From Longimicrobiaceae bacterium (GTDB taxonomy: Bacteria; Gemmatimonadota; Gemmatimonadetes; Longimicrobiales; Longimicrobiaceae), in NCBI GenBank assembly GCA_036259415.1, contig DATABU010000225.1, positions 1 to 32,602 on the forward strand: a stretch of 32,602 nucleotides of DNA, in the 5' to 3' direction. Below, piece by piece: positions 8,053 to 30,549 of this stretch; within the stretch, counting starts at the first letter, position 1, and every line of letters starts with the position of its first letter. The position numbers were made by a program, and so were the translations under genes. Under the pieces are notes generated by a model. That model was not told the DNA's origin. It did no database searches and saw only the letters and a program-made list of their open reading frames with translations.

Positions 8053-9060
8053 ATGCTAGACAACAAGGTCGTTCTCGTCACCGGCGGAACCGGCTCGTTC
8101 GGGCAGCGGTTCATCGAGACGGTGCTGCAGCGGTACGAGCCCAAGAAGCTGATCGTCTTCAGCCGCGACGAGCTGAAGCAGTTCGAGATGCGGCAGCGGT
8201 TCCCCGAGCGGGTCTACGACAACATCCGCTACTTCATCGGGGACGTGCGCGACCGCGACCGCCTGTACCGCGCCTTCGACGGGGTGGACGTGGTCATCCA
8301 CGCCGCGGCGCTGAAGCAGGTGCCGGCTTGCGAGTACAACCCGCTGGAGGCGGTCAAGACCAACGTCCTGGGCGCCGCGAACATCATCGACGCGGCCATC
8401 GACCGGGACGTGAAGCAGGTGATCGCCCTCAGCACCGACAAGGCGTGCAACCCGGTGAACCTGTACGGGGCCACCAAGCTGTGCTCCGACAAGCTGTTCA
8501 CCGCGGCCAACAACTATTCCGGCCCGCACCGCACGCGGTTCAGCGTGGTGCGCTACGGGAACGTGGTGGGGAGCCGGGGGAGCGTGGTCCCCTTCTTCCT
8601 GAAGATGCGCGAGACGGGGGTGCTCCCCGTTACCGACGAGCGCATGACCCGCTTCTGGATCACGCTGGAGCAGGGGGTGGAGTTCGTGCTGCGCAGCCTG
8701 GAGCGGATGCAGGGCGGCGAGATCTTCGTCCCCAAGATTCCCAGCATGAGCATCATGGACCTGGCCCGGGCGGTCGCCCCCGAGTGCGAGACCCGCGTAG
8801 TGGGGATCCGGCCCGGCGAGAAGCTGCACGAGGTGATGGTGGCCGAGGACGACGCCCGCCACACGCTGGAGTACGAGGACTACTTCGCCATCCTCCCCTC
8901 CTTCGACGAGTGGGACCCGGTGGCGTACGGACGGCGCAACGGCGGGACGCACTGCCCGGAGGGGTTCCGCTACAGCAGCGAGACGAACACGCAGTGGCTC
9001 TCCGAGGCGCAGCTCCGGGAGATGATCGGGCTCGACGAGGCGCTCGTCGGTGTCGAGTAG
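8053..9060 (+). CDS. pseB: UDP-N-acetylglucosamine 4,6-dehydratase (inverting), PseB
   Basis: MLDNKVVLVTGGTGSFGQRF..., STDKACNPVNLYGATKLCSDKLF (YxxxK), RYGNVVGSRGSVVPFF, GEIFVPKIPS, PGEKLHE. Typical PseB/FlaA1/CapD short form. ATG 8053 is preceded by GGGAG; the track's GTG 8020 is a possible but less likely start. Confidence 0.88.
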   Translation: MLDNKVVLVTGGTGSFGQRFIETVLQRYEPKKLIVFSRDELKQFEMRQRFPERVYDNIRYFIGDVRDRDRLYRAFDGVDVVIHAAALKQVPACEYNPLEAVKTNVLGAANIIDAAIDRDVKQVIALSTDKACNPVNLYGATKLCSDKLFTAANNYSGPHRTRFSVVRYGNVVGSRGSVVPFFLKMRETGVLPVTDERMTRFWITLEQGVEFVLRSLERMQGGEIFVPKIPSMSIMDLARAVAPECETRVVGIRPGEKLHEVMVAEDDARHTLEYEDYFAILPSFDEWDPVAYGRRNGGTHCPEGFRYSSETNTQWLSEAQLREMIGLDEALVGVE

Positions 9061-10243
9061 CCTCGCGCTGGAGGGCGGGACGCCGGTCCGCTCGGAGGTG
9101 CTGCCGTACGGCCGGCAGTGGCTGGACGACGACGACGTGGAAGCGGTGGTCCGCGCGCTCCGCTCGGACTGGCTGACCACCGGCCCGCTGGTCCCGGAGT
9201 TCGAGCGGGCCTTCGCGGAGTCGGCGGGAGCGGCGGAGGCGGTGGCGGTGAGCAACGGCACCGCGGCGCTGCACGCGGCGATGCACGCGCTGGGCATCGG
9301 GCCGGGCGACGAGGTGATCGTCCCCGCCATGACCTTTGCGGCGAGCTCCAACTGCGTGGTCTACCAGGGCGGGACCCCGGTATTCGCGGACGTGGACCCG
9401 GGCACCCTGCTGGTCGACCCGGCGTCCGTGGAGGCGCGGATCACCCCCCGCACGCGGGCGGTGGTGGCGGTGGACTACGCCGGGCAGCCCTGCGATTACA
9501 AGGCGCTGCGCGCGCTCGCGGAGCGGCACGGGCTGGCGCTGGTGGACGACGCCTCGCACTCGGTGGGGGGGAGCGACCGGGGGCGCCCCGTCGGCTCGCT
9601 GGCCGACCTGAGCACCTTCTCCTTCCACCCGGTCAAGCACCTGACCACCGGCGAAGGGGGGATGGTCGCGACCGACGACGCCGAGCTCGCGCGGCGGATG
9701 CGGGTGTTCCGCAACCACGGGATCACCTCGGACCACCGGCAGCGGGCGGAGCAGGGCGGCTTCTTCTACGAGATGGTGGAGCTGGGGTACAACTACCGGA
9801 TCACCGACTTCCAGTGCGCCCTGGGGCTCAGCCAGCTCCGCAAGCTCCCGGCGTTCGTGCGCCGGCGGCAGGAGATCGCGGCCCGCTACGACGCCGCCCT
9901 CGCCGCCGTCCCCGCCGTGCGCCCGCTGGCGGTCCGGCCGGGCGTGTCGCACGCCTACCACCTGTACACGGTGCTGCTGGACACCGGCCGGCTCTCCGCC
10001 GACCGGGCCGCGGTGTTCGCCGCGCTTCGCGCCGAGGGGATCGGGGTGAACGTGCACTACATCCCCGTGCACCTGCACCCGTTCTACCGGGAGCGGTTCG
10101 GCACGGGACCGGGGACGTGCCCGGTGGCGGAGGACGCCTACGAGCGGCTCGTCACCCTCCCCATGTTCCCGCAGATGACGGACGGCGACGCGGACGACGT
10201 GGTCGCCGCCGTCGTCAAGGTGGCGGAGCGCTTCGCGGCCTGA
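9050..10243 (+). CDS. pseC: UDP-4-amino-4,6-dideoxy-N-acetyl-beta-L-altrosamine transaminase, PseC (DegT family)
   Basis: LPYGRQWLDDDDVEAVVRALRSDWLTTGP N-terminus typical of PseC. PLP-lysine context FSFHPVKHLTTGEGG. NYRITDFQCALG. Sits immediately after pseB with an 11-nt overlap. Confidence 0.85.
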   Translation: MSSSLALEGGTPVRSEVLPYGRQWLDDDDVEAVVRALRSDWLTTGPLVPEFERAFAESAGAAEAVAVSNGTAALHAAMHALGIGPGDEVIVPAMTFAASSNCVVYQGGTPVFADVDPGTLLVDPASVEARITPRTRAVVAVDYAGQPCDYKALRALAERHGLALVDDASHSVGGSDRGRPVGSLADLSTFSFHPVKHLTTGEGGMVATDDAELARRMRVFRNHGITSDHRQRAEQGGFFYEMVELGYNYRITDFQCALGLSQLRKLPAFVRRRQEIAARYDAALAAVPAVRPLAVRPGVSHAYHLYTVLLDTGRLSADRAAVFAALRAEGIGVNVHYIPVHLHPFYRERFGTGPGTCPVAEDAYERLVTLPMFPQMTDGDADDVVAAVVKVAERFAA

Positions 10244-10248
10244 CGCGC

Positions 10249-11166
10249 GTGGGCCCGCCGCTTCACCTCCTGGCCGACGCCACGCCCGAGTGCGGCGCGG
10301 GGCACGCGATGCGCCTGGCGAGCCTCGCCGAGGAATGGGCCGCCGGGGCGGGCGGCGTGGTGCGCCTCGCCGGCGAGGTGTCCATCCCCTTCGTGCGGGA
10401 ACGGCTCGCCGCGGCCGGCGTACGGGTGGAGGCGTCGGGTGCCGGGCCGCTCCCGGGCGCGGTGCTGGTGGCCGACAGCTACGACGCCGGGCGCCGTCGG
10501 CAGGGAGCCGGGGCGCCCGGCGCCGCGCTCCGCGTGCTGGTGGACGACCTGGGCGGGGAGGTCCCGGCGGGGTACGACGCCGTCTGGAACCCGAGCGCCT
10601 GCGCCACCCCCGCGCTCTACCCCGGCTTCGCGGGCGAGGTGCTGGCGGGGGCTGCCTTCGTCCCGGTGCGGACCGGCCTCCCCCCGTGGCGGCCGTGCGG
10701 CCCCGGCACCACCGCGGTGATGCTGGGCGGCGGGGACGTCCCGCCCCACCTCCGCGACGCGCTCGGGAGGCTGGCGGCTGAGCTCGGGGAGGCGCGCTTC
10801 CGGGGCGTGGGGGGCTGGACTCCCCCGGGCTGGGGCGGCATCCCGGCGTCGGACCCGTGGCGGGAGGTCTCCGGCTGCGGGGTGCTGGTGACGGCGTCCG
10901 GATCGTCTGTGTGGGAGGCGGCCGCTGTCGGGATCCCCATGGTGGTGGTGAAGACCGCCGCGAACCAGGAGCGGGTGTTCCGCTGGGCCGTGGAGTCCGG
11001 CGCCCCGGGGGTGGACGCGACTTCGCTGCGCGACCCGGCCGCGCTCGCCCGCGCCCTGGGGGAGGCGCACGGCCGGGCGGCCCCGCTCCCGCGGATCCGG
11101 CCGGGCGGGGCGCACGTCGCCCGGACCCTGCGGGCGCTGGCGGCGCGCCGGGGAGCGGGGGCGTGA
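10249..11166 (+). CDS. pseG: UDP-2,4-diacetamido-2,4,6-trideoxy-beta-L-altropyranose hydrolase, PseG-like (GT28-like fold)
   Basis: This is the C-terminal 305 codons of the artefactual 9118-11166 ORF. GTG 10249 gives VGPPLHLLADATPECGAGHAMRLASLAEEW, matching the PseG N-terminal G-x-GH-x-x-R pattern. C-terminal VLVTASGSSVWEAAAVGIPMVVV nucleotide-sugar-binding strand. Position between pseC and pseH. The exact start is uncertain. Confidence 0.7.
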   Translation: MGPPLHLLADATPECGAGHAMRLASLAEEWAAGAGGVVRLAGEVSIPFVRERLAAAGVRVEASGAGPLPGAVLVADSYDAGRRRQGAGAPGAALRVLVDDLGGEVPAGYDAVWNPSACATPALYPGFAGEVLAGAAFVPVRTGLPPWRPCGPGTTAVMLGGGDVPPHLRDALGRLAAELGEARFRGVGGWTPPGWGGIPASDPWREVSGCGVLVTASGSSVWEAAAVGIPMVVVKTAANQERVFRWAVESGAPGVDATSLRDPAALARALGEAHGRAAPLPRIRPGGAHVARTLRALAARRGAGA

Positions 11167-11639
11167 CGGCTCCGCTCCGGGTCGTCCCCGCCGCGGCCGG
11201 CGACGCCTACGCGCTCTGGCTCTGGGCGAACGACGCGGGGACCCGCGCGGCCTCGTTCGGGCGCGATCCCATCGCCTGGGCCGATCACGTCGCCTGGCTG
11301 GAGCGCGCGCTCGCCGACGCCGCGCACGCGGTGCTGGTCGCGCGGAGCGCGGACGGGCGCCCGGTGGGGTCGATCCGCTTCGACACCGGGGACGGCTGGC
11401 GCACCGCCCGGCTCAGCTACGTGGTCGCGCCGGAGGCGAGGGGCGAAGGGCGCTCCGGGCCGATGGTGCGCGCGGGCGTGGCGTGGGTCCGCGGCGCCCA
11501 CCCCGGCGTGGCGGTGCGGGCCCGGGTGATGGAGGCCAACGAGCGGTCGCTGCGGGTGTTCCGGAGGCTCGGGTGGAGGGAGGAGCGGGCGGAGGAGGGG
11601 GTGAGGGAGTTCTGGTCCCGGGAGACGGGCGTGGAGTGA
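11163..11639 (+). CDS. pseH: GNAT N-acetyltransferase, PseH-like (assigned mainly by position)
   Basis: GTG 11163 overlaps the pseG stop (GTGA). About 158 aa. GNAT core (VAPEARGEGRSGPMV, ANERSLRVFRRLGW). Located between pseG and pseI, as in many pse operons. Confidence 0.6.
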   Translation: MTAPLRVVPAAAGDAYALWLWANDAGTRAASFGRDPIAWADHVAWLERALADAAHAVLVARSADGRPVGSIRFDTGDGWRTARLSYVVAPEARGEGRSGPMVRAGVAWVRGAHPGVAVRARVMEANERSLRVFRRLGWREERAEEGVREFWSRETGVE

Positions 11640-11641
11640 GG

Positions 11642-12694
11642 ATGGAGATCCAGATCAACGGCCGGAGCGTCGGCCCCGGGTACCCGGCGTACCTGGTGGC
11701 CGAGCTCTCCGGGAACCACAACGGCGACCTGCAGCGCGCGCTCGACACCGTCCACGCCGCGGCGGAGGCCGGGGCGGACGCGATCAAGCTGCAGACGTAC
11801 ACCGCCGACACGCTGACCATCGACTGCGGCAGCGGGCTCTTCGTCGTGCCCGGCGACGGCCCCTGGGGCGGACGGACGCTGTACCAGCTCTACCGGGAGG
11901 CGCACACCCCGTGGGACTGGCACGCGCGGCTCTTCGATGAGGCCCGCTCGTGCGGGATCGACGTGTTCTCCACGCCCTTCGACGCCACGGCCGTGGAGCT
12001 GCTGGAGGAGCTGGGCGCGCCGGTGCACAAGGTCGCCTCGTTCGAGCTGGTGGACGACGACCTGCTGCGGGCGGTCGGGCGCACGGGGAAGCCCGTGGTG
12101 CTCTCCACCGGCATGGCCAGCCTGGAGGAGATCGCCCACGCGGTGGACGTGCTGCGGGGCGCCGGCTGCGAGCAGGTGCTGCTGCTGCGCTGCACCAGCA
12201 GCTACCCGGCCCCGGACGCGTCCATGAAGCTGGCGACCCTCCCGGTGCTGGCGCAGGCGACCGGGTGCCCGGTGGGCCTCTCGGACCACAGCCTGGGCAC
12301 CACCGCCCCGGTGGTCGCCGTGACCCTCGGCGCCTGCTTCGTGGAGAAGCACTTCACGCTCGACCGGGCCGACGGCGGGGTGGACAGCCACTTCTCGCTG
12401 GAGCCGGCGGAGTTCCGCGCCCTGGTGGACGACGTGCGGCGCGCCGAGGCCATGATCGGCACGGCGGGCTTCGGGCCGGGCGTCGCCGAGGAGGGGAGCA
12501 CCGTGTTCCGCCGCTCCCTGTTCGTGGTGCGGGACCTGGCGCCGGGCGAAGAGCTCACCCGCGAGAGCGTGCGGTCCATCCGCCCCGGCTACGGGATGTC
12601 GCCCCGGTTCCTGGACGTGGTGCTCGGCAAGCGAGCGGCCCGGGCGATCCCCCGCGGGACGCCGCTCACCTGGGACCTGGTGGGCGGTGGCTGA
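11642..12694 (+). CDS. pseI: Pseudaminic acid synthase, PseI (NeuB family with C-terminal SAF domain)
   Basis: ATG 11642, 2 nt after the pseH stop. MEIQINGRSVGPGYPAYLVAELSGNHNGDLQRALDTVHAAAEAGADAIKLQTYTADTLT, STPFD, VHKVASFEL, GLSDHSLG, VEKHFTLDR. SAF-like tail FRRSLFVVRDLAPGEELT...IRPGYGM. Confidence 0.88.
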   Translation: MEIQINGRSVGPGYPAYLVAELSGNHNGDLQRALDTVHAAAEAGADAIKLQTYTADTLTIDCGSGLFVVPGDGPWGGRTLYQLYREAHTPWDWHARLFDEARSCGIDVFSTPFDATAVELLEELGAPVHKVASFELVDDDLLRAVGRTGKPVVLSTGMASLEEIAHAVDVLRGAGCEQVLLLRCTSSYPAPDASMKLATLPVLAQATGCPVGLSDHSLGTTAPVVAVTLGACFVEKHFTLDRADGGVDSHFSLEPAEFRALVDDVRRAEAMIGTAGFGPGVAEEGSTVFRRSLFVVRDLAPGEELTRESVRSIRPGYGMSPRFLDVVLGKRAARAIPRGTPLTWDLVGGG

Positions 12695-12713
12695 GCCCGG
12701 CGCCGCGCGCGGG

Positions 12714-13562
12714 ATGGAGCGGGTCGTCCTGGGGACGGTGCAGCTCGGCCTCCCCTACGGGGCGCGGGCGGGCGCGGGGACGATGCCGGAGCACGCCGCG
12801 CGGGCCGTGCTGGACGCGGCCTGGGCGCTGGGGATCCGCGCCTTCGACACCGCCGAGGCGTACGGGGAGTCCGCCGCGCGGCTGGAGCGCTGGCTGCGCG
12901 GGCGCGGGGTCGCCGGCGAGGCGCACGTGGTCACCAAGGTGAAGCCCGGCGAGGGGCCCGGGATCGGCGGCCGGGTGGAGCGGGCGCTGGCGCGCTTCCC
13001 CGACGCGGCGAGCCGGACGCTCCTCACGCACGGCGGGGCCGGAGGGCGGGAGTGGGAGGAGGCCGCGGCGGCCGCGCGGGCCTGTGACGCGGCGGCCGGG
13101 CAGAGCGTCTACGGCCGCGACGGGGTGGAAGCCGCGGTCGCCTGCGCGGGGGTGGAGCGGGTGCAGGCCCCCGGCAACCTGTTCGACCTGGGGGCGCTGG
13201 CCGGGCGTGCCGGCGCCCCCGTGGCGCTGGACCTCCGCTCGGTGTACCTCCAGGGGCTGCTCGCCTCGCCGCCCGCCGCCGCCGAAGCCAGGGTCCCCGG
13301 GGCGGGAGCGTTGGCGGGTGCGGTCGCCGCGGCGGCGGCCGGGGTGGGGGAGGAGCCCGCCGCGCTGCTCTGCGCCGTGGTGCTGGGGGCGTGCCGCCGC
13401 GGCGACCGGCTGGTGGTCGGGGTGGACGCCCCGGAGCAGCTCGCGCCCGTGGCGCGGGCGGTCTCGCTCGACCCGCCCACTGTCCAGGCGTTCGCGCGCG
13501 CGGCGCGGGAGGCCGTGGCGGGTCCGGTGGACCCCCGCGTCCTCGATCCGCGACGCTGGTGA
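12714..13562 (+). CDS. Aldo/keto reductase family oxidoreductase
   Basis: MERVVLGTVQLGLPYG...AVLDAAWALGIRAFDTAEAYGESAARLERWL shows the AKR D-x-A-x-x-Y-G signature region. ATG 12714 chosen; GTG 12687, overlapping the pseI end, is the alternative. The C-terminal half is Ala-rich and less diagnostic. Confidence 0.65.
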   Translation: MERVVLGTVQLGLPYGARAGAGTMPEHAARAVLDAAWALGIRAFDTAEAYGESAARLERWLRGRGVAGEAHVVTKVKPGEGPGIGGRVERALARFPDAASRTLLTHGGAGGREWEEAAAAARACDAAAGQSVYGRDGVEAAVACAGVERVQAPGNLFDLGALAGRAGAPVALDLRSVYLQGLLASPPAAAEARVPGAGALAGAVAAAAAGVGEEPAALLCAVVLGACRRGDRLVVGVDAPEQLAPVARAVSLDPPTVQAFARAAREAVAGPVDPRVLDPRRW

Positions 13563-13602
13563 CGCGGGTCGCGGCGCGCCGTACTCAAGACGAGCGGAAT
13601 CG

Positions 13603-15669
13603 ATGCCGATGTCCAGGACCGTAGCGGTGATCCAGGCGCGGACCTCGTCCACGCGACTCCCCCGGAAGGTGCTCGCGCCCGTCGGGCCGGTCACCCTGGT
13701 CGAGCGGCTGGTCCGGCAGCTCGGCGGCGCCCGGGAGCTGGACGCGGTCGTGGTGGCCACCTCCGCCGACCCCAGCGACGACGAGCTGGCCGCGCACCTG
13801 GAGGCGGCGGGGGTCCCCGTCTACCGCGGCGAGCTGGACGACGTGCTGGCGCGCTTCGCCGGCGCCGCCCTGTCGCACGGGGCGGAGGTGGTGGTCCGGC
13901 TCACCGGCGACTGCCCGCTGCACACGCCGGACACCGTGGACGAGGTGGTGGCCGCCTTCCGCGCGTCGGGCGCGGACTACGCGTCGAACGTGGACCCGTA
14001 CACGCGGCCCGACGGGCTGGACGTGGAGGTGTTCCACCGCGGCGCGCTGGAGCGGGCGCTGCGCGAGGCGCAGCCGGGGCCCGACCGCGAGCACGTCACC
14101 CCCTGGCTCCGCCGCTCGGAGGCCGTGCGCAGACACGCGCACCTGCACCGTGACGGGCTGGGCGGCGAGGGGCTCCGCTGGACGGTGGACGAGCCCGCGG
14201 ACCTGGAGTACGTCCGCCGCGTCTGGGCGAGACTGGACGAGATCGGGGCGCAGCCCCACAGCTACGAGACCATCATGAAGGCAGCCCTGGAAGTCGGAGC
14301 GCGCGACGGCGCCGACATCTCCAACCGGGGATACTACAGGTCCCTGTTCGAAGCCGCCGCCGGCGAAGCGGCCCCGCCGCTCCGGCTGGAGCGCAGCGAG
14401 GAGCTGCTGCGGCGCAGCGCCGCGGTGGTGCCCGGCGGCGCCCAGACCTACTCCAAGAGCTGGCGCCAGCACATCCGCGGGGTGTCGCCGGTGTTCCTGG
14501 AGCGCGGCGAGGGGGCCCGCGTCTGGGACGTGGACGGCAACGAGTACGTGGACCTCGTCCAGGGGCTCCTCCCCAACGTGCTGGGGTACGCCCACCCGGA
14601 AGTGGACCGCGCCGCCTACGAGCGGGCCCGGCGGGGGCACTCGTTCTCGCTGGCGCACCCGCTGGAGGTGGAGCTGGCCGAGCGCCTGGTCCGGCTGATC
14701 CCCTGCGCCGAGATGGTGCGCTTCGGGAAGAACGGCTCCGACGCCACCGCGGGGGCGGTGCGCGTCGCGCGGGCCTTCACCCGGCGGGACCGGGTGGCGA
14801 CCTGCGGCTACCACGGCTGGCAGGACTGGTTCATCGGCACCACCTCGCGCACGGCGGGGGTCCCGGAGGCGGTCCGCGAGCTGGCGCACCCCTTCCCGTA
14901 CGACGATCTTGAGGCGCTGGACCGGCTCCTCTCGGCGCACCCGGGCGAGTTCGCCGCGGTGATCATGGAGCCGTTCAACTTCTTCCCGCCGGCGGAGGGC
15001 TACCTCCAGGGGGTCAGGGAGCTGGCGCACCGGCACGGGGCGCTGCTCATCTTCGACGAGATCTGCACCGGCTTCCACATGGGGCTGGGCGGGGCGCAGA
15101 AGATGTTCGGGGTCCTCCCCGACCTCGCCACCTTCGGCAAGGCGATGGGGAACGGCTACCCCATATCCTGCATCGTCGGCAGGCGGGACGTGATGCAGAC
15201 GTTCGACGACGTGTTCGTCTCCTTCACCTTCGCCGGCGACGTGGCCGCGATGGCGGCGGCGATGGCGGTGCTGGACGTGCTGGAGCACACCGACGCGCTG
15301 CCGCGCATGCACGCGGCCGGGCGCAAGCTGGCCGACGGCGCCCACGCGCTGGCCGCCGAGGCGGGGCTCGGCGACCGCTTCCGCACGCACGGGCACCCCG
15401 CCTGGACGCTGCTGCGCTTCCTGGACGCCGGGGGCGCGGACGACCCCGTCCTCAAGACGCTCTGGTCGCAGGAGGTCGTGCGGCGCGGCGTGCTGGTGCT
15501 CGCCACCCACAACGTGTGCGCGGCGCTGGACTACGCGGCCGTGGAGCACGTGCTGCGGGCCTACGCCGAGGCGTTCCGGTTCGTGGGGCGGCTCGCGGCC
15601 GAGGGGGCCGACCTCGCCGCGTACCTGGACGGTCCGGTGCCCTCGCCCGCCTTCCGCGCCCGGGGCTGA
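13603..15669 (+). CDS. Fusion protein: N-terminal SpsF/COG1861-type cytidylyltransferase domain plus C-terminal class-III (GSA-aminomutase-like) PLP aminotransferase domain
   Basis: ATG 13603 inside the artefactual 13084-15669 ORF. N-domain VAVIQARTSSTRLPRKVLAPVG...VVVATSADPSDDELA...VYRGELDDVLARF...RLTGDCPL...YASN. After about 250 aa comes VVPGGAQTYSKS...FLERGEGARVWDVDGNEYVDL...GKNGSDATAGAVRVARAFT...IFDEICTGFHMG...DLATFGKAMGNGYP (PLP lysine). One uninterrupted frame. Confidence 0.8.
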   Translation: MPMSRTVAVIQARTSSTRLPRKVLAPVGPVTLVERLVRQLGGARELDAVVVATSADPSDDELAAHLEAAGVPVYRGELDDVLARFAGAALSHGAEVVVRLTGDCPLHTPDTVDEVVAAFRASGADYASNVDPYTRPDGLDVEVFHRGALERALREAQPGPDREHVTPWLRRSEAVRRHAHLHRDGLGGEGLRWTVDEPADLEYVRRVWARLDEIGAQPHSYETIMKAALEVGARDGADISNRGYYRSLFEAAAGEAAPPLRLERSEELLRRSAAVVPGGAQTYSKSWRQHIRGVSPVFLERGEGARVWDVDGNEYVDLVQGLLPNVLGYAHPEVDRAAYERARRGHSFSLAHPLEVELAERLVRLIPCAEMVRFGKNGSDATAGAVRVARAFTRRDRVATCGYHGWQDWFIGTTSRTAGVPEAVRELAHPFPYDDLEALDRLLSAHPGEFAAVIMEPFNFFPPAEGYLQGVRELAHRHGALLIFDEICTGFHMGLGGAQKMFGVLPDLATFGKAMGNGYPISCIVGRRDVMQTFDDVFVSFTFAGDVAAMAAAMAVLDVLEHTDALPRMHAAGRKLADGAHALAAEAGLGDRFRTHGHPAWTLLRFLDAGGADDPVLKTLWSQEVVRRGVLVLATHNVCAALDYAAVEHVLRAYAEAFRFVGRLAAEGADLAAYLDGPVPSPAFRARG

Positions 15670-15694
15670 CCCGGCGCGGGGAGGCGCATCCATC

Positions 15695-18335: not shown

Positions 18336-18340
18336 GCCGA

Positions 18341-18874: not shown

Positions 18875-18888
18875 GAGCGGAGCTGAAG

Positions 18889-20169: not shown

Positions 20170-20172
20170 GCG

Positions 20173-20913: not shown

Positions 20914-20919
20914 GCGGCA

Positions 20920-20959: not shown

Positions 20960-21028
20960 TCTCGGGCGGGCGCGGCAAGCACCCGTCGGCCCGCGGGCGC
21001 AGGCGATCCACCTCCACCCCTCAGGACG

Positions 21029-21985: not shown

Positions 21986-22047
21986 GTGCCGCAGCTCCCG
22001 CGCCGGCCACTCCGCACCGGTCCTCCTCACCCGGGCTCCCTCGTACC

Positions 22048-22422
22048 ATGCTGAGAGTCGCACGACGGTTCGGGAGCTACAAGCTCAGGGAGCCCTCGCT
22101 GGCCGCCCTGTCCGCGGACGGCGTCCCGCGCGAGGTGCTGACCCGTCTCGCGGACCTGGTGGAGGTGGAGCTCGGCTCCCGGCGGGAGCTCGAGTCGGGC
22201 CGGAGCTTCCGGCGAGGAGAGGAGCAGCGCCAACCGGTGCGGGTCGGGTCCACCTTCGCGACGCACAGCGCGCTCATCCCCCGGGGCCCGGAGCAGAGCG
22301 GGGGCCTGCGGGAGCTCCTCGGATTGTTCGACGGGCACGCGGACCACGTCTGCTGGCAGGAGGAGGCCCCCTCCGGCCCGGGCGAGATGTACACCGCCAC
22401 CATCTTCCGCGTCGCCAAGTGA
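22048..22422 (+). CDS. Small hypothetical protein (124 aa), no recognisable family
   Basis: ATG 22048. Strong G/C third-position bias like the neighbouring genes. Its TGA overlaps the GTG of the next gene (GTGA 22419-22422), suggesting translational coupling. No motifs recognised. Confidence 0.45.
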   Translation: MLRVARRFGSYKLREPSLAALSADGVPREVLTRLADLVEVELGSRRELESGRSFRRGEEQRQPVRVGSTFATHSALIPRGPEQSGGLRELLGLFDGHADHVCWQEEAPSGPGEMYTATIFRVAK

Positions 22423-24577: not shown

Positions 24578-25233
24578 CCGGGGAGCACGCGGCGGACGCA
24601 GGGGTGCCGATGGAGAGCCCGTTCCTGACGGGTCCCACCGTCTACCTCCGCCCGCACGTCGCCGCGGACGTGGAGGGCGACTGGTTCCAGTGGTTCAACG
24701 ACCCCGAGGTGAACCGGTTCCTCCACCACGGGGTCTTCCCGAACACCCGGGAGCGGCAGGCCGCGTTCCTGGAAGAGCTGCACGGGCGCCACGAGGCCCG
24801 CACGCACCTGCAGCTGGCGATCGTGGAGCGCGCGACCGGAGACTTCGTGGGGGTGGTCAGCCTGGGGAGCATCGACTGGGTGCACCGCAACGCCGAGCTG
24901 GCGATGGTGATGAGGAGCGGTTCGCAGAGCCGCGGCATCGGCCGCGAGGTGGCGGCGCTGGTGCTGAACCACGGCTTCATGAAGATGAACCTCCACCGGA
25001 TCTGGGCCTGCCAGCACGTGGGCCTCTCCTGGGCGAGCGACGGCCTGAAGCGCTACTTCGGGTTCCGGGAGGAGGGCACCCTGCGGGAGGCGATGCGCCG
25101 GGACGGGGAGTACCACGACCTCCTCGTGGTGGGGCTGCTCGCGCGCGAGTGGCGGGAGCTGCTGGACGGCGCCGGCGAGACGCTGGCGGACGTCCTCCCC
25201 GCGGCCGCGCGGCCGATCGGGGGACGCCGATGA
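24574..25233 (+). CDS. GNAT family N-acetyltransferase (RimL-like), first of a tandem pair
   Basis: ATG 24574 (ATGA overlap). Alternative ATG 24610 gives MESPFLTGPTVYLRP, which aligns with MKSRFIAGERVHLRE of the 18341 GNAT. WFNDPEVNRFL, VGVVSLGSIDWVHRNAELAMVM, RGIGREVA. Confidence 0.78.
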   Translation: MTGEHAADAGVPMESPFLTGPTVYLRPHVAADVEGDWFQWFNDPEVNRFLHHGVFPNTRERQAAFLEELHGRHEARTHLQLAIVERATGDFVGVVSLGSIDWVHRNAELAMVMRSGSQSRGIGREVAALVLNHGFMKMNLHRIWACQHVGLSWASDGLKRYFGFREEGTLREAMRRDGEYHDLLVVGLLAREWRELLDGAGETLADVLPAAARPIGGRR

Positions 25234-25772
25234 TCGAGACCCCCCGCCTCCGCGTCGTGCCCTTCGGCGAGGAACACCTCACCGGGCGGTACGTGGGGTG
25301 GCTCAACGACCCGGTGGTGGTCCGCTACAGCGACCAGCGCTTCCGGGCGCACACCCTGGAATCGTGCCGGGCGTACATGGAGTCGTTCGCCGGGACCCCG
25401 CACCACTTCTGGGCGATCATGGCCCGGGACCCCGCGCTCGGCCACATCGGCAACCTCAACGCGTACGTGAGCACGCTCCACCGGGTGGCCGACGTGGGGA
25501 TCGTGGTGGGGGAGCGGCAGGCGTGGGGAAAGGGGTACGGGAGCGAGGCGTGGATCGCCGTCTGCGACTACCTGCTGCGTCCCGGGGGGATGCGTAAGGT
25601 CACCGCCGGCACCCTGGAGGTGAACCGTCCCATGCTGGCGATCATGGAGAGAGCCGGAATGGTCCCCGACGGGCGGCAGGTGCGGCAGAACCTCTTCGAG
25701 GGACGGGAGGTGGACGTGGTCCGCGCCGCGCTTTTCGCGGACGACTGGAACCCGGCGGCACACGGGCGCTGA
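25230..25772 (+). CDS. GNAT family N-acetyltransferase (RimL-like), second of a tandem pair
   Basis: ATG 25230 (ATGA overlap). MIETPRLRVVPFGEEHL..WLNDPVVVRY, IGNLNAYVSTLHRVADVGIVVGE..WGKGYGSEA, VNRPMLAIMERAGM. Confidence 0.8.
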   Translation: MIETPRLRVVPFGEEHLTGRYVGWLNDPVVVRYSDQRFRAHTLESCRAYMESFAGTPHHFWAIMARDPALGHIGNLNAYVSTLHRVADVGIVVGERQAWGKGYGSEAWIAVCDYLLRPGGMRKVTAGTLEVNRPMLAIMERAGMVPDGRQVRQNLFEGREVDVVRAALFADDWNPAAHGR

Positions 25773-25812
25773 CCCGCCGCCGGAGCATCTGGCAAACCTG
25801 ACGCGGTACACG

Positions 25813-27264
25813 TTGTCGAAGAGCCCCAGCACAGCAGCACCTCCCGCGAGGAAGCGGAGCCTGGTCGTGGTCTCGGTGCCGTTCACCCGCACGGCCCGGG
25901 TCCTCCTCTCCTCCGAGATCTTCGAGCGCCTCCGCCTGGAGCACGACGTCCTGGTCGTGAGCCCCTCCGCGGAGGACGAGGCGTTCCAGCGGGAGTTCGG
26001 CGGGCCGAACACCCGCTTCTACCGCTTCCGCGGCGAGGGAGTGTACCGCCGGCGGATCCCGGCGGTCCTGTACGGCGTCTCCGAGCTGCTCCGCTTCCAG
26101 GGCTACTACTTCCGCTACCGGCGCGCCGGGCTCGAGTACTACTGGCGGGGGCGGGACGTGGTGCACGGGAGGGGCGGGGAGGACCGCCGGCGCGGTCCCG
26201 GAGCCAGGGCGGCGATGACGCTCCTGGGGTACCTGGGATACGCTCCCGCCGCGTGGAGGCTGGCGGACCGCGTGGCCGCGCCCCTGGTGCACGACGTCGC
26301 GGAGATCGGCCGCATCGCCGACGGGTACGACTCCGTGGCGGTCGTGCAGGTGGCCTCCTTCGGCGAGCAGGAGCGCTTCCTCTCGTACTGCGCGCGGAAG
26401 TTCGGCTTCCGGACGCTGCTGCTCCCGTACACCACCGACCAGCTGACCATCAACGGGCACCTGCTCTCCCGGTTCGACCGGGTCCTGGCGCAGGGCCCGT
26501 GGGAGGCGCGGTGCGCGACCGAGATGCACGGTGTCCCGGCCGAGCGGGTCCACACGCTGGGATCGCTCTGGTTCCGGAACATGGACCGGATCCGGCGCAT
26601 GCTGGAGGAGCGCGGCGAGAGCGCGCCCCGGGAGCCGGGCGCTCCCCGGGTCGTGATGTACGCGGGGCACAGCTCGATGTACTTCCCCCGGGAGAGCGAG
26701 TACGCCGCCGTGGACGCGGTGCTGGCCGCGATGCGCGCCGGCGTGTTCGGGCCCGCGCGGCTGGTCTACCGGCCCATCACCGAGGGTGACGACGAGCTGG
26801 ACGACCTGGTCGCGCGCTATGGCGGCGACCCGCTGGTGGAGATCCAGTTCCCGCAGGCGTCGTGCATCGGCATCACCGGGCACACGCGCGGGGAGGTGGC
26901 CGCCGAGCTGGCCGAGTACGTGAAGCAGCTCCTGGAGGTGGACGTGCTGGTGATGTCCTACCTCACCTCCATGTGCCTGGACGCGTACTACCTGGGCCGC
27001 GGCGTGGTCTCCAACTGCGCCGACGCCACCGGGACGCTGGAGCGCCGCGGCGCGGAAGTCTTCCTGGCCGCCGACGTAAACCGGGTCGTGCGCTCCGGCA
27101 TGCCCATGGCCCGGTCGCTGCCGGAGCTGGTCGAGGCCGTGCGCGACGCGCTCGACCGGCCGGAGCAGGGACGGGAGGCGGGGCGCCGCCTGGTGGCGGA
27201 GTGGGACCATCCCCGCGAGGACTACGTCGGCGAGTTCATGCGCGTGCTGAACGCATGCCTCTGA
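25813..27264 (+). CDS. Large hypothetical protein (about 483 aa), possibly GT-B-like; family not recognised
   Basis: The coding frame has high GC3. TTG 25813 is only the most upstream possible start. The C-terminal half has the same strand order as 23441-24577 (VVMYAGHSS... / LVYRPITEG... / VDVLVMSYLTSMCLDAYYLGRGVV). No classical GT-A DxD or GT4 EX7E motif recognised. Confidence 0.5.
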   Translation: MSKSPSTAAPPARKRSLVVVSVPFTRTARVLLSSEIFERLRLEHDVLVVSPSAEDEAFQREFGGPNTRFYRFRGEGVYRRRIPAVLYGVSELLRFQGYYFRYRRAGLEYYWRGRDVVHGRGGEDRRRGPGARAAMTLLGYLGYAPAAWRLADRVAAPLVHDVAEIGRIADGYDSVAVVQVASFGEQERFLSYCARKFGFRTLLLPYTTDQLTINGHLLSRFDRVLAQGPWEARCATEMHGVPAERVHTLGSLWFRNMDRIRRMLEERGESAPREPGAPRVVMYAGHSSMYFPRESEYAAVDAVLAAMRAGVFGPARLVYRPITEGDDELDDLVARYGGDPLVEIQFPQASCIGITGHTRGEVAAELAEYVKQLLEVDVLVMSYLTSMCLDAYYLGRGVVSNCADATGTLERRGAEVFLAADVNRVVRSGMPMARSLPELVEAVRDALDRPEQGREAGRRLVAEWDHPREDYVGEFMRVLNACL

Positions 27265-27319
27265 CGGGACGCGGTCCGGCGGGCTCGCGGACTTCGACGA
27301 CTCGAGACGGACGTTACGG

Positions 27320-28051
27320 ATGAAGCAGTTCCTCCGGGACTTCGTGGTCCCCCCCGGGATCCTCCATCTCGTCTCCCGCTTCCAAGATGCCCGGGAGGCG
27401 GCGCGCTACTCCGGCTCGGGCGACGACTACGACGCCGCCCGCTACTGGAAGTCGCACTACCGGTCCTCCGGCCCGGAGCGCATCTTCAGTTCCGCCAACC
27501 AGGGGCTGGACGACGAGGAGAACCGCCGGCAGTACGAGAGCGCGCGGCGAATCTTCTGGAGCATGGTCGCCGACTTCGGGCTGGGGCCGGATCCCCGGGT
27601 CCTGGAGATCGGGTTCGGGACCGGCTTCTACACCGGGATCGTCCACCGGATGGGGTTCCGCGACTACCTGGGGGTGGACATCACCGACGCGACCATCGCG
27701 GGGATCCTGGCGCGGCTGGACGGCTTCCGGGGCGAGCTGGTCCGGCGCGACGCCGGGCAGGAGCGGATCGAGCGCCCGGGGTGCGACCTGGCGTACATGG
27801 TCGACGTCTCGCAGCACATCGTGAACGACGACAAGCTGGCCTTCTGCCTCCGGGAGAACGTGGTTCCCAACCTGAAGCCCGGCGGCTACTTCATCGTCAC
27901 GGACGAGCTCTCCGCGCGCTCCAAGCTCTTCTACGAGAAGACGCGCACCCTGGACTTCTACCGCGACTGCATGGCGGGGTGCGAGATCTTCCACCAGCCC
28001 ATCTCGTTCCGGGACAAGTACGTGTTCTCCTTCCGCAGGGTGGGCGCATGA
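27320..28051 (+). CDS. Class I SAM-dependent methyltransferase
   Basis: ATG 27320. Motif I VLEIGFGTGFYTG, acidic post-I residue in GVDIT, motif LKPGGYFIVTDE. Confidence 0.75.
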   Translation: MKQFLRDFVVPPGILHLVSRFQDAREAARYSGSGDDYDAARYWKSHYRSSGPERIFSSANQGLDDEENRRQYESARRIFWSMVADFGLGPDPRVLEIGFGTGFYTGIVHRMGFRDYLGVDITDATIAGILARLDGFRGELVRRDAGQERIERPGCDLAYMVDVSQHIVNDDKLAFCLRENVVPNLKPGGYFIVTDELSARSKLFYEKTRTLDFYRDCMAGCEIFHQPISFRDKYVFSFRRVGA

Positions 28052-28070
28052 GCCGGGGCCGCCGCCGGGG

Positions 28071-29450
28071 ATGAGCCTCGCGAAGAAGTCCTTCGCCCTG
28101 CTCCGGCAGGACGTCTTCCTCTTCGTCGCCAACCTGGCGACGGGCGTGGTCGTGGCGCGGCATCTGGGTCCCACCAGCTACGGCCTCTGGGCGATACTGC
28201 AGCTGATCCCGACCTACGCCGAGGCGTTCGTGCGCCTCAAGGTGGACTCGGCGGGCGTGTACCTGATCGGCACGGGGCGCTACGGGGCGGGGCGGGTGAG
28301 ATCGCTGCTGGACCGGGTGGCGCTGGGCTCCGGCCTGGCCGTGGTCGCGCTCATCGCATGGGGGATGGAGCCGCTGGCGGAGCGGCTCTTCGGAGCAGCC
28401 GCGGCGGACGTGCGCCCCGCGATGCTGGCGGTGGCGCTCCAGGTGCCCTTCCAGTTCCTGCTGCTGAACTACACGAAGCTCCTCCTCCTGCGGGAGGACG
28501 TGCGGGCGTACAACCAGTCCGTGCTCCTCCGGACGCTCTCGTTCGCCCTGCTCAGCGTGACGCTCCTCTTCGGCGCGGGGCTGGGGCTGCTCGGCGTGGT
28601 GGCGGCTGGGACCGCGTCCACCGCGCTGGCCTGCGCCTTCGCCTGGCGGGCGCTCGGGCCCCGCCCGGCGGATGGCGCCGGCTCCGCGCCCGGGCTGGGC
28701 AGGGCGCTGGTGGAGCAGGCGCTCCCGCTGTACGGGGCGGGGATCGTGGGGCACCTGCACGCGTACTCCTCCAGCACCGTGGTGGCGCTCTACCTGTCGC
28801 CGGCCAACGTCGGTTTCCTGGGGATGGCGCAGAACCTCGGCCGCCTGCTGGAGCGGATCACGGAAGCGCTGAACATGCTGCTCTTCCCGCGCATCGCGCG
28901 CATGGAGCGGGGCGCCGGTCCGGCACAGCTCGCGGCGCGCGCCTACCGGGTGATGCTGCTGGCCATGCTCGCCACCGCCGCCGGGATGGCGCTGGCGGTG
29001 CGACCGCTGGTGGAGGTGGTGTACGGCCGCGAGTTCCTCCCCGCGGTCCTCCCGTTCTGGATCCTCCTCCCGGGGGTGGTGGCGTTCGCCGCCTCCACCG
29101 TCTTCACGCAGTACCTGGTGGGGGTAGGCAGGGCCGGTCTCGCGCTGCGGATCTCCATCGCCCCGCTGCTGGTGCAGGTCTCCCTGGCGTTCCTCCTCGT
29201 CCCGAGGTTCGGCCTGGCCGGCGCGGCGTGCGCGCTGTCGGTGGCGTCCATCCTGGTCGCCATGCTGCAGGTGGGCGTTTTCGTCCACGTGGCCCGCCCG
29301 CACGTGCGCGCCGCCGACCTGGTGGTGGGCGGCGAGGACCTGCGCACCCTCCTGCACTTCGTCTCCGGACAGCTCGCCGGGCTCCGCGCCCGGCTGCAGC
29401 CCCGCCGGGCCCCGGCGGGCCCGCCGCTTCCGCCGGACCTGGACTCGTAG
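28071..29450 (+). CDS. wzx: Wzx-type oligosaccharide flippase (MOP/PST family polysaccharide biosynthesis protein)
   Basis: ATG 28071. Polytopic hydrophobic protein (about 12 predicted helices by eye). Typical N-terminus KKSFALLRQDVFLFVANLATGVVVARHLGPTSYGLWA and mid-protein LPLYGAGIVGHL. Confidence 0.8.
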   Translation: MSLAKKSFALLRQDVFLFVANLATGVVVARHLGPTSYGLWAILQLIPTYAEAFVRLKVDSAGVYLIGTGRYGAGRVRSLLDRVALGSGLAVVALIAWGMEPLAERLFGAAAADVRPAMLAVALQVPFQFLLLNYTKLLLLREDVRAYNQSVLLRTLSFALLSVTLLFGAGLGLLGVVAAGTASTALACAFAWRALGPRPADGAGSAPGLGRALVEQALPLYGAGIVGHLHAYSSSTVVALYLSPANVGFLGMAQNLGRLLERITEALNMLLFPRIARMERGAGPAQLAARAYRVMLLAMLATAAGMALAVRPLVEVVYGREFLPAVLPFWILLPGVVAFAASTVFTQYLVGVGRAGLALRISIAPLLVQVSLAFLLVPRFGLAGAACALSVASILVAMLQVGVFVHVARPHVRAADLVVGGEDLRTLLHFVSGQLAGLRARLQPRRAPAGPPLPPDLDS

Positions 29451-29529
29451 CCGCCGCACACCCCACGAGGCAGGACCCCGGCCGCCGCCGGGATCGTCCC
29501 CGCCGCCGCATCCACGCACTGCCCAGAAC

Positions 29530-30549
29530 ATGGCGTCCACCGCCGAGGTCAAGGTCCCGGCCAACGTCCCCTGCTGCGTCTGCGGCGGCACGGAGAGCGG
29601 GCTGGTGTTCGAGAAGGGATACCCGCTGTACGGCTACCCGGGGCCGTTCGCCCTCCGGCGCTGCGCCGGCTGCGGGCTGCTCTTCAACTCGCCCCGCCTC
29701 ACGGAGGAGGGGACCGCACGGCTCTACGGGGCCAACTACTACTTCTTCCGCCGGCGCCCCTCGGAGGAGTTCCGGCGCATCCAGGAGATGTGGGAGCGGA
29801 CCATCGCGCTCGTGGGGGAGATGGTCCCGAGGCGCGAGGTCCTGGAGATCGGGAGCGCGAAGGGGTTCCTCCTCGCCGTGATGCAGGGGGCCGGCTGGAA
29901 GGTACAGGGCGTCGAGCTCTCGCCCTTCGCCGCCGGCTTCGCCCGGGAGCGGCTGCGCGTCCCCACCTTCACCGGGCGGGTGGAGAACTTCGTGGAGGAG
30001 GGGGGAGGCAGTCACCCGCTCGTGCTGGCGATCGACGTCGTGGAGCACGTGCTCGACCCGCCGCTCTTCGTCGGGTCGCTGGCGCGGCTGGTCGAGCCCG
30101 GCGGCCTGCTGCTGATCGACACCCCCAACGGCGCGGCGGCCAACATCGAGCTGCTGGGCGAGGCGTGGAAGGGCTTCAACCCGTTCCACGTCTACCTGTT
30201 CTCGGTGGAGAACCTGTCCCGGCTGCTGGCGGAGCACGGCTTCGTGGTGGAGGCGAGCTTCTCCTACGGCAACGCGCCCGCCTGCCCCGGGGAGGCCGCG
30301 GCTTCCGCCCCCCGTGCCCGGCAGCTGGCGAGGGCGGCGCTGGAGACCGCCGGGGTCATCGAGCCGCTCCGGCGGGGCAGGGACGCCGCCCTGGAGGCGC
30401 TCGATCGCGCGCAGCTGGAGCGGCTGGTGCGGGAGAGCACGGCCGCGGTCCGGCGGTCGCGCGCCTACTCGGCTTCGGAGGACGCCCGCCTCCCCCTCGC
30501 CGAGGGGTGCCGCGGCGACAACATCGTGGTCGTCGCGCGGAAGCTGTAG
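29530..30549 (+). CDS. Class I SAM-dependent methyltransferase with an N-terminal Cys4 zinc-ribbon and a C-terminal extension of about 100 aa
   Basis: ATG 29530. CCVCGG...RRCAGCGLLFNSP (CxxC...CxxC), motif I VLEIGSAKGFLL, GVELSP, LVEPGGLLLIDTPN. The Ala/Arg-rich tail has no recognised domain. Confidence 0.75.
   Translation: MASTAEVKVPANVPCCVCGGTESGLVFEKGYPLYGYPGPFALRRCAGCGLLFNSPRLTEEGTARLYGANYYFFRRRPSEEFRRIQEMWERTIALVGEMVPRREVLEIGSAKGFLLAVMQGAGWKVQGVELSPFAAGFARERLRVPTFTGRVENFVEEGGGSHPLVLAIDVVEHVLDPPLFVGSLARLVEPGGLLLIDTPNGAAANIELLGEAWKGFNPFHVYLFSVENLSRLLAEHGFVVEASFSYGNAPACPGEAAASAPRARQLARAALETAGVIEPLRRGRDAALEALDRAQLERLVRESTAAVRRSRAYSASEDARLPLAEGCRGDNIVVVARKL

Follow-up and report, generated by a model that had tools for sequence, protein, structure and literature searches.

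Positions 8053-30549 of contig DATABU010000225.1, from an uncultured bacterium of soil type related to Longimicrobiaceae (Gemmatimonadota), hold an operon-like locus for a surface glycan. The whole stretch of DNA that was analysed (32.6 kb) is called the window below. Our favoured reading, to which we assign a probability of about 0.6, is that the locus makes a cytidine monophosphate (CMP)-activated, multiply modified nonulosonate of the pseudaminic acid (Pse) type for the surface glycan; far less confidence attaches to any specific modified position or group on this nonulosonate. The gene content goes beyond what Pse5Ac7Ac or Pse5Ac7Am needs, as an earlier note on this DNA had proposed. We compared the gene neighbourhoods of about 100 related loci (designated by L-numbers; mostly genes within 10 kb), and the results revealed that this excess recurs elsewhere and splits into three modules, M1, M2 and M3. 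The M1 part turned out to be a standard partner of Pse operons and not tailoring specific to this locus. No known, fully characterised pathway was found that matches the extra genes. We present the finding as a well-founded hypothesis on an uncultured organism, not as a demonstrated new sugar.

The Pse core and its setting

Because the window has about 73% GC, its lists of open reading frames (ORFs) are full of spurious frames, and genes were therefore called by third-position GC. This yielded 23 collinear plus-strand genes between 8053, the start of pseB, and 30549, the stop codon of the second methyltransferase gene. In the window as a whole, one minus-strand gene (52-2067) is followed by 29 collinear plus-strand genes. 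All genes in 2211-30549 lie on the same strand with gaps of at most 115 bp, and neighbours within 6853-30549 either overlap by 4-11 bases or are separated by gaps within that limit. A promoter/terminator scan of 12603-32602 detected no site above chance.

Gene identities were assigned from Pfam and NCBIfam profile scores against curated cut-offs, together with some PDB sequence searches (Table 1). The earlier note had described a contiguous pseB-pseC-pseG-pseH-pseI set. PseB, PseC and PseI exceeded their curated cut-offs, and their membership supports the assignment of a Pse-type nonulosonate locus, whereas PseG and PseH are placed by position and synteny only. The PseG-position protein keeps its syntenic place in other Gemmatimonadota Pse operons, at 45-47% identity, and a PDB sequence search with it gave no match. 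PseB, PseC and PseI, with the PseG-like and PseH-like proteins, would build the Pse5Ac7Ac skeleton out of UDP-GlcNAc. Canonical PseF (TIGR03584) is not in the window, where the best score was 17 bits against a cut-off of 206; because of this absence, CMP activation is attributed to cytidylyltransferases of the SpsF/COG1861 type. A second nonulosonate pathway inside the window was rejected, since a single NeuB-family synthase is present.

The Pse set stands among capsule export and Wzx genes and not among flagellar genes, as the earlier note had said. Genes for Wzi, Wza and a Wzz/GNVR co-polymerase lie upstream; these proteins and Wzx all scored over the Pfam gathering scores, and Wzx is the sole multi-span membrane protein in the window. 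Flagellin glycosylation was rejected, as the window is without flagellar, Maf and FlmG genes. From this gene context an exported polysaccharide is plausible. Wzx would flip a lipid-linked unit across the membrane, and the upstream Wza, co-polymerase and Wzi would export a capsule-like polymer.

Module M1, a recurrent partner of Pse operons

M1 consists of an aldo-keto reductase (AKR) and a protein in which a cytidylyltransferase is fused to a class-III aminotransferase. The AKR reported earlier was confirmed by a weak Pfam match together with its D/Y/K/H tetrad. The class-III aminotransferase was likewise present, not as a separate enzyme but as the C-terminal domain of the cytidylyltransferase at 13609-15669. 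The claim of two COG1861-type cytidylyltransferases held, both having CTP_transf_3 matches and one lying within this fusion. The fusion comprises 686 residues; its aminotransferase part is glutamate-semialdehyde-aminomutase-like, and the lysine for pyridoxal phosphate (PLP) and the aspartate are invariant. At least about 8000 database proteins matched the fusion at E<1e-20, a figure that includes non-fused class-III aminotransferase relatives, and the best 120 relatives listed (at least 60% identity) were all fusions. In Gemmatimonadota the AKR gene lies directly upstream of the fusion gene, and two proteins (P0005 and P0048) are AKR-cytidylyltransferase-aminotransferase triple fusions.

We examined fusion loci in 80 representative genomes, which include Gemmatimonadota, Acidobacteriota, Verrucomicrobiota, Gammaproteobacteria, Cytophagales, SAR86 and the cultured Thiohalophilus thiocyanatoxydans. 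Within 10 kb of the fusion gene, PseB was found in 71, PseC in 64 and PseI in 75 of the 80 loci. Five Gemmatimonadota genomes carry a pseB-pseC-pseG-pseH-pseI-AKR-fusion operon with nothing else in it. Moreover, in 78 of the 80 loci no other COG1861-type cytidylyltransferase was found within 10 kb of the fusion, suggesting that M1 is most likely a PseF substitute. Judged by its neighbourhoods, M1 is a normal component of a widespread Pse operon variant rather than locus-specific tailoring.

The closest parallel by domain content is EpaA of Acinetobacter baumannii prophages, a CTP_transf_3-Aldo_ket_red fusion which, with EpaB, a short-chain dehydrogenase/reductase (SDR), converts Pse5Ac7Ac to 8-epi-Pse5Ac7Ac, as determined by nuclear magnetic resonance (PMC12053666). 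Both systems couple a CTP_transf_3 cytidylyltransferase with an AKR in a Pse context, encoded here by adjacent genes and fused in P0005 and P0048. They differ in that the M1 partner is a class-III PLP aminotransferase domain and not an SDR, no adh_short_C2 protein being present in the locus, and in that M1 lies inside the Pse operon, where it is apparently the only activating enzyme. By analogy, the PLP aminotransferase domain of the fusion occupies the place of EpaB. M1 would thus replace PseF and add an EpaA-like redox or transamination step on the nonulosonate; the chemistry could run from alcohol through ketone to amine, or in reverse. No useful match came from a protein search of a phage collection for proteins that resemble EpaA and correspond to the AKR or the cytidylyltransferase domain. 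An SpsF-like domain, in an SpsF-AKR protein, has been proposed as a NeuA substitute in a Moritella Pse cluster (PMC7371886). In the literature we found no function described for a cytidylyltransferase-class-III aminotransferase fusion, and none for glutamate-semialdehyde aminotransferases in work on nonulosonates.

A further group of loci from Gammaproteobacteria and Cytophagales (L011-L015 and L024), with Thiohalophilus thiocyanatoxydans DSM 16326 among them, has the fusion beside a NeuB-like synthase and a PseB-like dehydratase, both under the curated cut-offs, and no PseC, PseG or PseH is present in these loci. They may represent a pared-down nonulosonate pathway of non-canonical type, with the class-III domain serving as its aminotransferase.

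Module M2, a putative acetamidino triad

The acetamidino-forming triad named in the earlier note was also recovered, WbuX and HisH exceeding their cut-offs and HisF/WbuZ falling slightly under (266 vs 300). The three genes are adjacent with overlapping stops, as expected for dedicated subunits. Together with the GNAT gene that follows they form a four-gene block, which was found in only 4-5 of the 80 M1 loci. With or without the GNAT, the triad adjoins PseI or PseB in L006, L008, L041, L094, L098, L100 and L101. In three of these loci (L098, L100 and L101) it adjoins PseI while the M3 oxidoreductase and aminotransferase are missing, and for this reason a nonulosonate is favoured over a hexosamine as the M2 substrate. 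PseA of Campylobacter forms an acetamidino group on a nonulosonate, and enzymes of the WbuX family, such as WbpG and LfnA, act on hexosamines too. In the manner of PseA, M2 would convert one N-acetyl group of the sugar to an acetamidino group.

Module M3, a second oxidoreductase-aminotransferase set with new enzyme families

M3 holds the second DegT-family aminotransferase and the Gfo/Idh/MocA oxidoreductase of the earlier note, both confirmed by Pfam, as well as the second cytidylyltransferase. The DegT protein scored under every NCBIfam equivalog cut-off, and its best PDB match was 8gyh, followed by perosamine synthetases; literature searches on 8gyh and on 6oew, a PDB match of the second cytidylyltransferase, returned nothing. 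All three further GNATs were confirmed, at 18341 (assigned to M2), 24574 and 25230; the first is 31-36% identical to the other two. Two GT-B proteins (23441-24577 and 25813-27264) were missing from the earlier list. Pfam, NCBIfam and PDB sequence searches with these two proteins, with the protein at 21029-21985 and with the PseG-position protein returned nothing usable.

The protein at 21029-21985 had been labelled a PhyH-like oxygenase, a label that proved right by predicted fold and by an HxD...H...R motif and not via Pfam, where no match appeared even at E<=5 and hence no PF05721 hit. In an alignment of 24 relatives, H188-x-D190, H271 and R282 are invariant. Foldseek matched the AlphaFold model to the PhyH-type 2-oxoglutarate (2OG) oxygenases SnoK, SnoN, GriE, EctD and HygX (E ~1e-9, probability 1.0, target-normalised TM 0.54-0.63), several of which act on sugars. 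A PhyH-type oxygenase with jelly-roll fold, HxD...H iron triad and 2OG-binding arginine is therefore supported at the level of the model. The 24 relatives came from a word-indexed search and are an under-count, a caveat that applies equally to the 23 relatives of 25813-27264. An exhaustive profile search gave 205 clusters at E<=1e-30 and 1290 at E<=1e-3, and extreme rarity of the family was rejected on that basis. Three of ten remote family members reach PF05721 at 20-22 bits (cut-off 22).

The GT-B-like protein at 23441-24577 has EDPG, GTSE and LHPK motifs that are invariant in six family members. These resemble the D/E-D/E-G and HP motifs of bacterial sialyltransferases (PMC5420450). Its weak match is to NF046086. 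Deletion of the Tannerella forsythia enzymes of this family strips the terminal Pse or legionaminic acid (Leg) derivative off an O-glycan (PMC5420450). The window protein is not a member of that family, and we take it as a lead, a candidate transferase for a CMP-activated sugar. For the protein at 25813-27264, Foldseek found UDP-GlcNAc 2-epimerases, GT4 enzymes and TagF (E ~1e-7). Both proteins are likely GT-B enzymes and would move the M3 product onto the lipid-linked unit.

The two methyltransferases of the earlier note, dependent on S-adenosylmethionine (SAM), were confirmed by Pfam, and an extra methyltransferase remnant was detected at 22048-22422. It derives from a 328-residue Methyltransf_11 protein, intact in L084 and L085, by an in-frame loss of about 620 bp that comprises the SAM-binding core. 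L084 is a contig of the Longimicrobiaceae metagenome-assembled genome (MAG) that holds the closest named relative of the M1 fusion protein (86% identical). It is collinear with the window from 13429 on, at 81-87% DNA identity, with two differences: it has an intact methyltransferase and lacks the GNAT at 24574-25233. These differences indicate that tailoring genes vary between close strains.

Overall, M3 would oxidise, transaminate and N-acylate the sugar a second time, and might also hydroxylate or epimerise it and methylate it. We found no function described in the literature for M3 with its oxygenase and GT-B families.

Distribution of M3

The M3 block was found at 35-70% identity in near-same order in a TARA Oceans contig (L082/L083), L088 and L091, and reordered in L096. 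The last, an independent lineage, has M3, Wzx, PseB, PseC, M1 and PseI together. In L086 and L087, NeuB is followed in turn by a cytidylyltransferase, a Gfo-type oxidoreductase, DegT (about 427 residues) and the oxygenase; L089 has NeuB, a GT2-annotated gene and then a Gfo-DegT pair, with no oxygenase homologue detected. Of about 12 independent loci that exceed 6 kb and have an oxygenase homologue, 8 carry a NeuB/PseI or PseB gene no more than 10 kb away: the window lineage, L086, L087, L094, L096, L098, L100 and L101. By its neighbourhoods, M3 is less common than M1, is recurrent, and is mostly linked to nonulosonate genes.

Two side observations concern these loci. Between the fusion and PseI genes of L096 (17447-19994) lie a PIG-L-type de-N-acetylase gene, two formyltransferase-like genes and a DUF218 gene; this set suggests N-formyl Pse derivatives there. 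On marine contigs, Heparinase II/III-like and Wzy_C genes follow an M3-type block or its GT-B homologue (L082 12325-14361; L090 10550-12643).

Weighing the favoured reading against alternatives

Several observations weigh against a multiply modified Pse-type nonulosonate. The PseG and PseH assignments are putative, with scores under the family cut-offs. On the PseH model TIGR03585, the GNATs at 18341-18874 and 24574-25233 scored 37-39 bits, above the 27 bits of the PseH-position GNAT, which makes acetylation of the PseC product by that GNAT uncertain. Every step after PseI is one that we infer, and the need for both cytidylyltransferases is unexplained. The deleted methyltransferase implies that M3 may be partly decayed. 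M3 also occurs with no Pse or NeuB gene in the available DNA of L082/L083, L088 (which starts at a contig end), L091 and the short L093 (6 kb). In L082/L083 and L096 a UDP-sugar 6-dehydrogenase precedes M3, which also fits a UDP-2,3-diamino-uronic acid route. Finally, no Wzy polymerase, initiating phosphoglycosyltransferase or tyrosine kinase of the BY type was found in the 32.6-kb window; these may lie outside it.

The last observation bears on a serious, if somewhat unlikely, alternative, in which the sugars are the same and the glycan is not a capsule. The unit flipped by Wzx would go to lipid A-core, as an O-antigen, or to proteins, by general O-glycosylation as in Tannerella, and Wza, Wzz and Wzi would serve another polysaccharide. 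In favour of an O-antigen or a protein-linked oligosaccharide, no Wzy, initiating transferase or BY-kinase was found in the window. For the transferase, the nearest hint at family level is a protein-O-glycan enzyme (PMC5420450), a 90-bp gap separates the export genes from the Pse block, and export genes are not next to M1 or M3 in other lineages. However, the genes from 2211 to 30549 form one closely spaced run on a single strand, and Wzy_C genes follow M3 in L082, L088 and L090, fitting polymerised units.

An alternative that we consider unlikely on balance is that M3, possibly with M2, builds a separate activated amino sugar. Gfo/Idh/MocA, DegT and GNAT would act as WbpB, WbpE and WbpD (or as GnnA/GnnB or NtdC/NtdA), the oxidoreductase/aminotransferase/acyltransferase logic being identical in both systems. 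The product would be a 3-amino or 2,3-diamino sugar, for example a hexosaminuronic acid with two N-acyl groups, which WbuX might amidinate in the way of WbpG; Pse would be little decorated, and the amino sugar might be its acceptor, the role of ManNAcA in Tannerella. WlbA (3q2k, E 1e-7) is a weak match of the Gfo protein, and the M3 DegT scored 125 bits against WbpE and 132 bits against NtdA, yet it stays under every WbpE-type or other equivalog cut-off. The 6-dehydrogenase directly upstream of M3 in L082/L083 and L096 and the TviC-like epimerase at 6853-7962 fit such a route, whereas no UDP-GlcNAc 6-dehydrogenase was found in the window. M3 without Pse genes (L082/L083, L091 and L088) is set against the Gfo-DegT pair downstream of a NeuB-type synthase in L086, L087 and L089. 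WbuX-family activity on hexosamines would allow M2 to join this route, but the triad adjoins PseI in loci that have no M3 Gfo/DegT (L098, L100 and L101). Furthermore, in every full copy of M3 a cytidylyltransferase, which has no role in a UDP-sugar route, is flanked by DegT and Gfo, and the M3 GT-B protein has sialyltransferase-type motifs. The two readings are not separable by sequence, and the multiply modified nonulosonate is favoured over a second activated amino sugar.

It is highly improbable that M3 modifies and activates an eight-carbon ulosonic acid from housekeeping lipopolysaccharide metabolism to give an aminated, N-acylated Kdo (3-deoxy-D-manno-oct-2-ulosonic acid), by the logic of Shewanella Kdo8N: this would explain M3 occurrence without a nonulosonate synthase, NeuB being missing near some M3 copies, and it draws on the KdsB families as best named NCBIfam matches of the M3 cytidylyltransferase (64 bits, under cut-off; KdsB also among the PDB matches), on a DegT match to the Kdo8N transaminase 5k8b (E 2e-38) and on KpsC/KpsS-like Capsule_synth proteins in L086, L087 and L096, but the resemblance to KdsB and Kdo8N is generic within the CTP_transf_3 and DegT families, the M3 cytidylyltransferase shares 40% identity with the M1 domain, itself tied to Pse loci, most long loci have Pse or Leg genes, and no Capsule_synth protein was found in the window.

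The locus contains two parallel triads, in each of which a COG1861 cytidylyltransferase stands with an oxidoreductase and an aminotransferase: one is the AKR with the class-III aminotransferase fusion, the other Gfo/Idh/MocA, DegT and cytidylyltransferase; there are four GNATs. In a quite doubtful elaboration of the favoured reading, either triad would take one free Pse hydroxyl (C8 and/or C4) by way of a keto group to a further N-acylated amino group. The product would be a tri- or tetra-amino nonulosonic acid, also amidinated, and hydroxylated or epimerised by the PhyH-related 2OG oxygenase. A full-text literature search found no description of a nonulosonate with extra amino groups (triamino).

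Comparison with known systems

Pse in capsules and O-antigens is already known, as is acetamidino-Pse. Pse-containing capsules or K-antigens include the K2/K6 types of Acinetobacter and the K-antigen polysaccharide (KPS) of Sinorhizobium fredii, in which Pse is part of an exported polysaccharide and not of flagellin, as proposed here; unlike the window, these loci have canonical PseF/PsaC and few tailoring genes. The CMP-Pse pathway of Helicobacter and Campylobacter (PseB, C, H, G, I, F and PseA) shares with the window PseB, PseC, PseI and PseG-/PseH-like proteins in the expected order, and a WbuX/PseA-type amidotransferase with HisH and HisF partners. In contrast, the window lacks PseF and has a pair of COG1861/SpsF-type cytidylyltransferases, of which one is fused to a class-III aminotransferase, has a Wzx/Wza setting instead of a flagellar one, and encodes many more enzymes.

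The Tannerella forsythia locus for Pse5Am7Gra or a Leg derivative, with the transferase Tanf_01245/TFUB4_00887 (BFO_1060 family; PMC5420450, PMC5378307), is alike in a doubly N-modified Pse (amidino and another acyl), complete at the CMP-sugar stage, as proposed here, and in having, next to the pathway genes, a soluble GT-B transferase that bears HP-type motifs. Nonetheless, the window protein (24.5 vs 200 bits) is not a family member, and only the HP-type and acidic N-terminal motifs are alike; Tannerella is also without PseA/WbuX homologues, and its glycan is protein-linked. By annotation only, the Legionella pneumophila serogroup 6/12 O-antigen cluster (PMC3694923) has the counterparts of M1 and M2: GNAT, PseG-like, glutamate-semialdehyde-aminomutase-like aminotransferase, acylneuraminate cytidylyltransferase, acetyltransferase, HisF, HisH, WbuX-like and aryl-alcohol dehydrogenase genes. 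The M1 and M2 genes are unfused there, no functions were assigned to them in that paper, and M3 is absent. The Pseudomonas aeruginosa O5 set of WbpA/WbpB/WbpE/WbpD/WbpI and WbpG (UDP-ManNAc3NAcA and its amidino form) has Gfo/Idh/MocA, DegT, N-acyltransferase and WbuX-family amidotransferase in common with the window. It differs in that the window has no UDP-GlcNAc 6-dehydrogenase, has a GNAT in place of a left-handed-helix acetyltransferase, and has an embedded cytidylyltransferase; at the sequence level the matches are weak. CMP-nonulosonates are known to undergo post-synthetic epimerisation (Aci, 8eAci and 8ePse; PMC5595891, PMC12053666), and Leptospira nonulosonate clusters contain several aminotransferases and synthetases (PMC3438082).

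Other genes of the window

Upstream of the Pse core, the TviC/WbpP-like SDR points to an additional hexosamine or hexosaminuronate in the glycan. The co-polymerase lacks a tyrosine-kinase domain, and a separate gene for a BY-kinase was not found within the window. We know of no description of a Wzi protein paired with a C-terminal, peptidoglycan-binding LysM domain, as at 52-2067. A relative of the 546-residue protein (31% identical) was found in L094 near a PseB-like SDR gene. Downstream of the studied stretch, 30637-31797 encodes a transglutaminase-core protein, and 31944-32600 the N-terminus of a protein that runs off the window and starts like a GT-B enzyme of the Kdo-transferase/heptosyltransferase type (very weak Glycos_transf_N match).

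Table 1. Features of the window and one compared locus. Positions refer to the window unless a locus is named; "vs" precedes the curated cut-off.
Feature	Position	Strand	Evidence
Wzi-like capsule assembly protein, C-terminal LysM	52-2067	-	Pfam: Caps_assemb_Wzi 48 bits, LysM 57 bits; divergent strand
546-residue protein, signal-peptide-like N-terminus, between wzi and wza	2211-3851	+	no Pfam or NCBIfam match
Wza-type outer-membrane polysaccharide export protein	3908-5569	+	Poly_export and SLBB domains over Pfam cut-off
Wzz/GNVR polysaccharide co-polymerase, without kinase domain	5603-6856	+	Wzz 26 bits, GNVR 37 bits; two hydrophobic segments
TviC/WbpP-like nucleotide-sugar 4-epimerase-type SDR	6853-7962	+	NF011728 467 bits, under cut-off 760
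PseB, inverting UDP-GlcNAc 4,6-dehydratase	8053-9060	+	TIGR03589 549.5 bits vs 407.75
PseC aminotransferase	9050-10243	+	TIGR03588 471.6 bits vs 423.5; SFHPVK lysine motif
PseG-position protein, putative UDP-sugar hydrolase	10249-11166	+	TIGR03590 35 bits vs 154, C-terminal match only
PseH-position GNAT N-acetyltransferase (putative)	11163-11639	+	Acetyltransf_3 47 bits; TIGR03585 27 bits vs 93; position conserved
PseI, pseudaminic acid synthase	11636-12694	+	TIGR03586 456 bits vs 340; NeuB model lower, 279.5 bits
M1 AKR	12687-13562	+	PF00248 37 bits at N-terminus; tetrad D53/Y58/K84/H114 present
M1 fusion: COG1861/SpsF-type cytidylyltransferase (~1-180) and class-III aminotransferase (~260-686)	13609-15669	+	CTP_transf_3 79, Aminotran_3 180, PRK06209 392 bits
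M2 WbuX/PseA-type N-acetyl-sugar amidotransferase (PP-loop)	15695-16951	+	TIGR03573 337.6 bits vs 203.2
M2 HisH-like glutaminase subunit	16948-17577	+	TIGR01855 209 bits vs 105
M2 HisF/WbuZ-like cyclase-fold subunit	17571-18335	+	TIGR03572 266 bits vs 299.7; NF038364 (AglZ/HisF2) 242 vs 310
M2 GNAT accompanying the amidotransferase triad	18341-18874	+	Acetyltransf_3 98 bits; after HisF in L006, L008, L041, L084
M3 second DegT-family aminotransferase, 432 residues	18871-20169	+	PF01041 279 bits; SLNYHK lysine motif; 38% identical to locus PseC
M3 second COG1861-type cytidylyltransferase	20173-20913	+	CTP_transf_3 91.5 bits; PDB 6oew E 1e-30; 40% identical to M1 fusion N-terminal domain
M3 predicted Fe(II)/2OG oxygenase, Pfam-less PhyH-related family	21029-21985	+	AlphaFold pLDDT 88; Foldseek; HxD...H...R motif
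M3 methyltransferase remnant, 124-residue ORF	22048-22422	+	alignment of its N- and C-terminal thirds with L084 8615-8791 and 9413-9595
M3 Gfo/Idh/MocA NAD(P)-dependent sugar oxidoreductase	22419-23444	+	PF01408, PF22725, PF02894; weak PDB matches including WlbA
M3 GT-B-like protein, sialyltransferase-type motifs	23441-24577	+	NF046086 24.5 bits vs 200
GNAT acyltransferase	24574-25233	+	Acetyltransf_3 66 bits; insertion (24563-25218) relative to collinear L084, L085
M3 GNAT acyltransferase	25230-25772	+	Acetyltransf_3 69 bits; homologues in L088, L091, L093
M3 GT-B-fold enzyme (likely), 483 residues	25813-27264	+	no Pfam match; AlphaFold pLDDT 92; at least 23 relatives
SAM-dependent methyltransferase	27320-28051	+	Methyltransf_25, _12, _11
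M3 Wzx-type flippase	28071-29450	+	Polysacc_synt_3 41 bits; at least 8 hydrophobic segments; with M3 in L082, L088, L091, L096
SAM-dependent methyltransferase, N-terminal Cys-rich motif	29530-30549	+	Methyltransf_23 PF13489 75 bits
Thiohalophilus thiocyanatoxydans DSM 16326 fusion locus	L015 7074-12052

Significance

Nonulosonic acids shape the recognition of bacterial surfaces by phages, predators and immune systems, and the enzymes that diversify them are mostly unknown (PMC5420450, PMC5378307). Three portable modules, each open to separate testing, emerge from the locus and its relatives. M1 occurs in thousands of environmental genomes of Acidobacteriota, Verrucomicrobiota, Gemmatimonadota and Gammaproteobacteria, and in M3 nonulosonate genes are coupled with a 2OG oxygenase family and two GT-B families, all of them new. 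Work on these modules might yield new sugar-modifying enzymes and sialyltransferase-like catalysts, and solving them would improve the prediction of structures from sequence for a large proportion of soil and marine bacteria.

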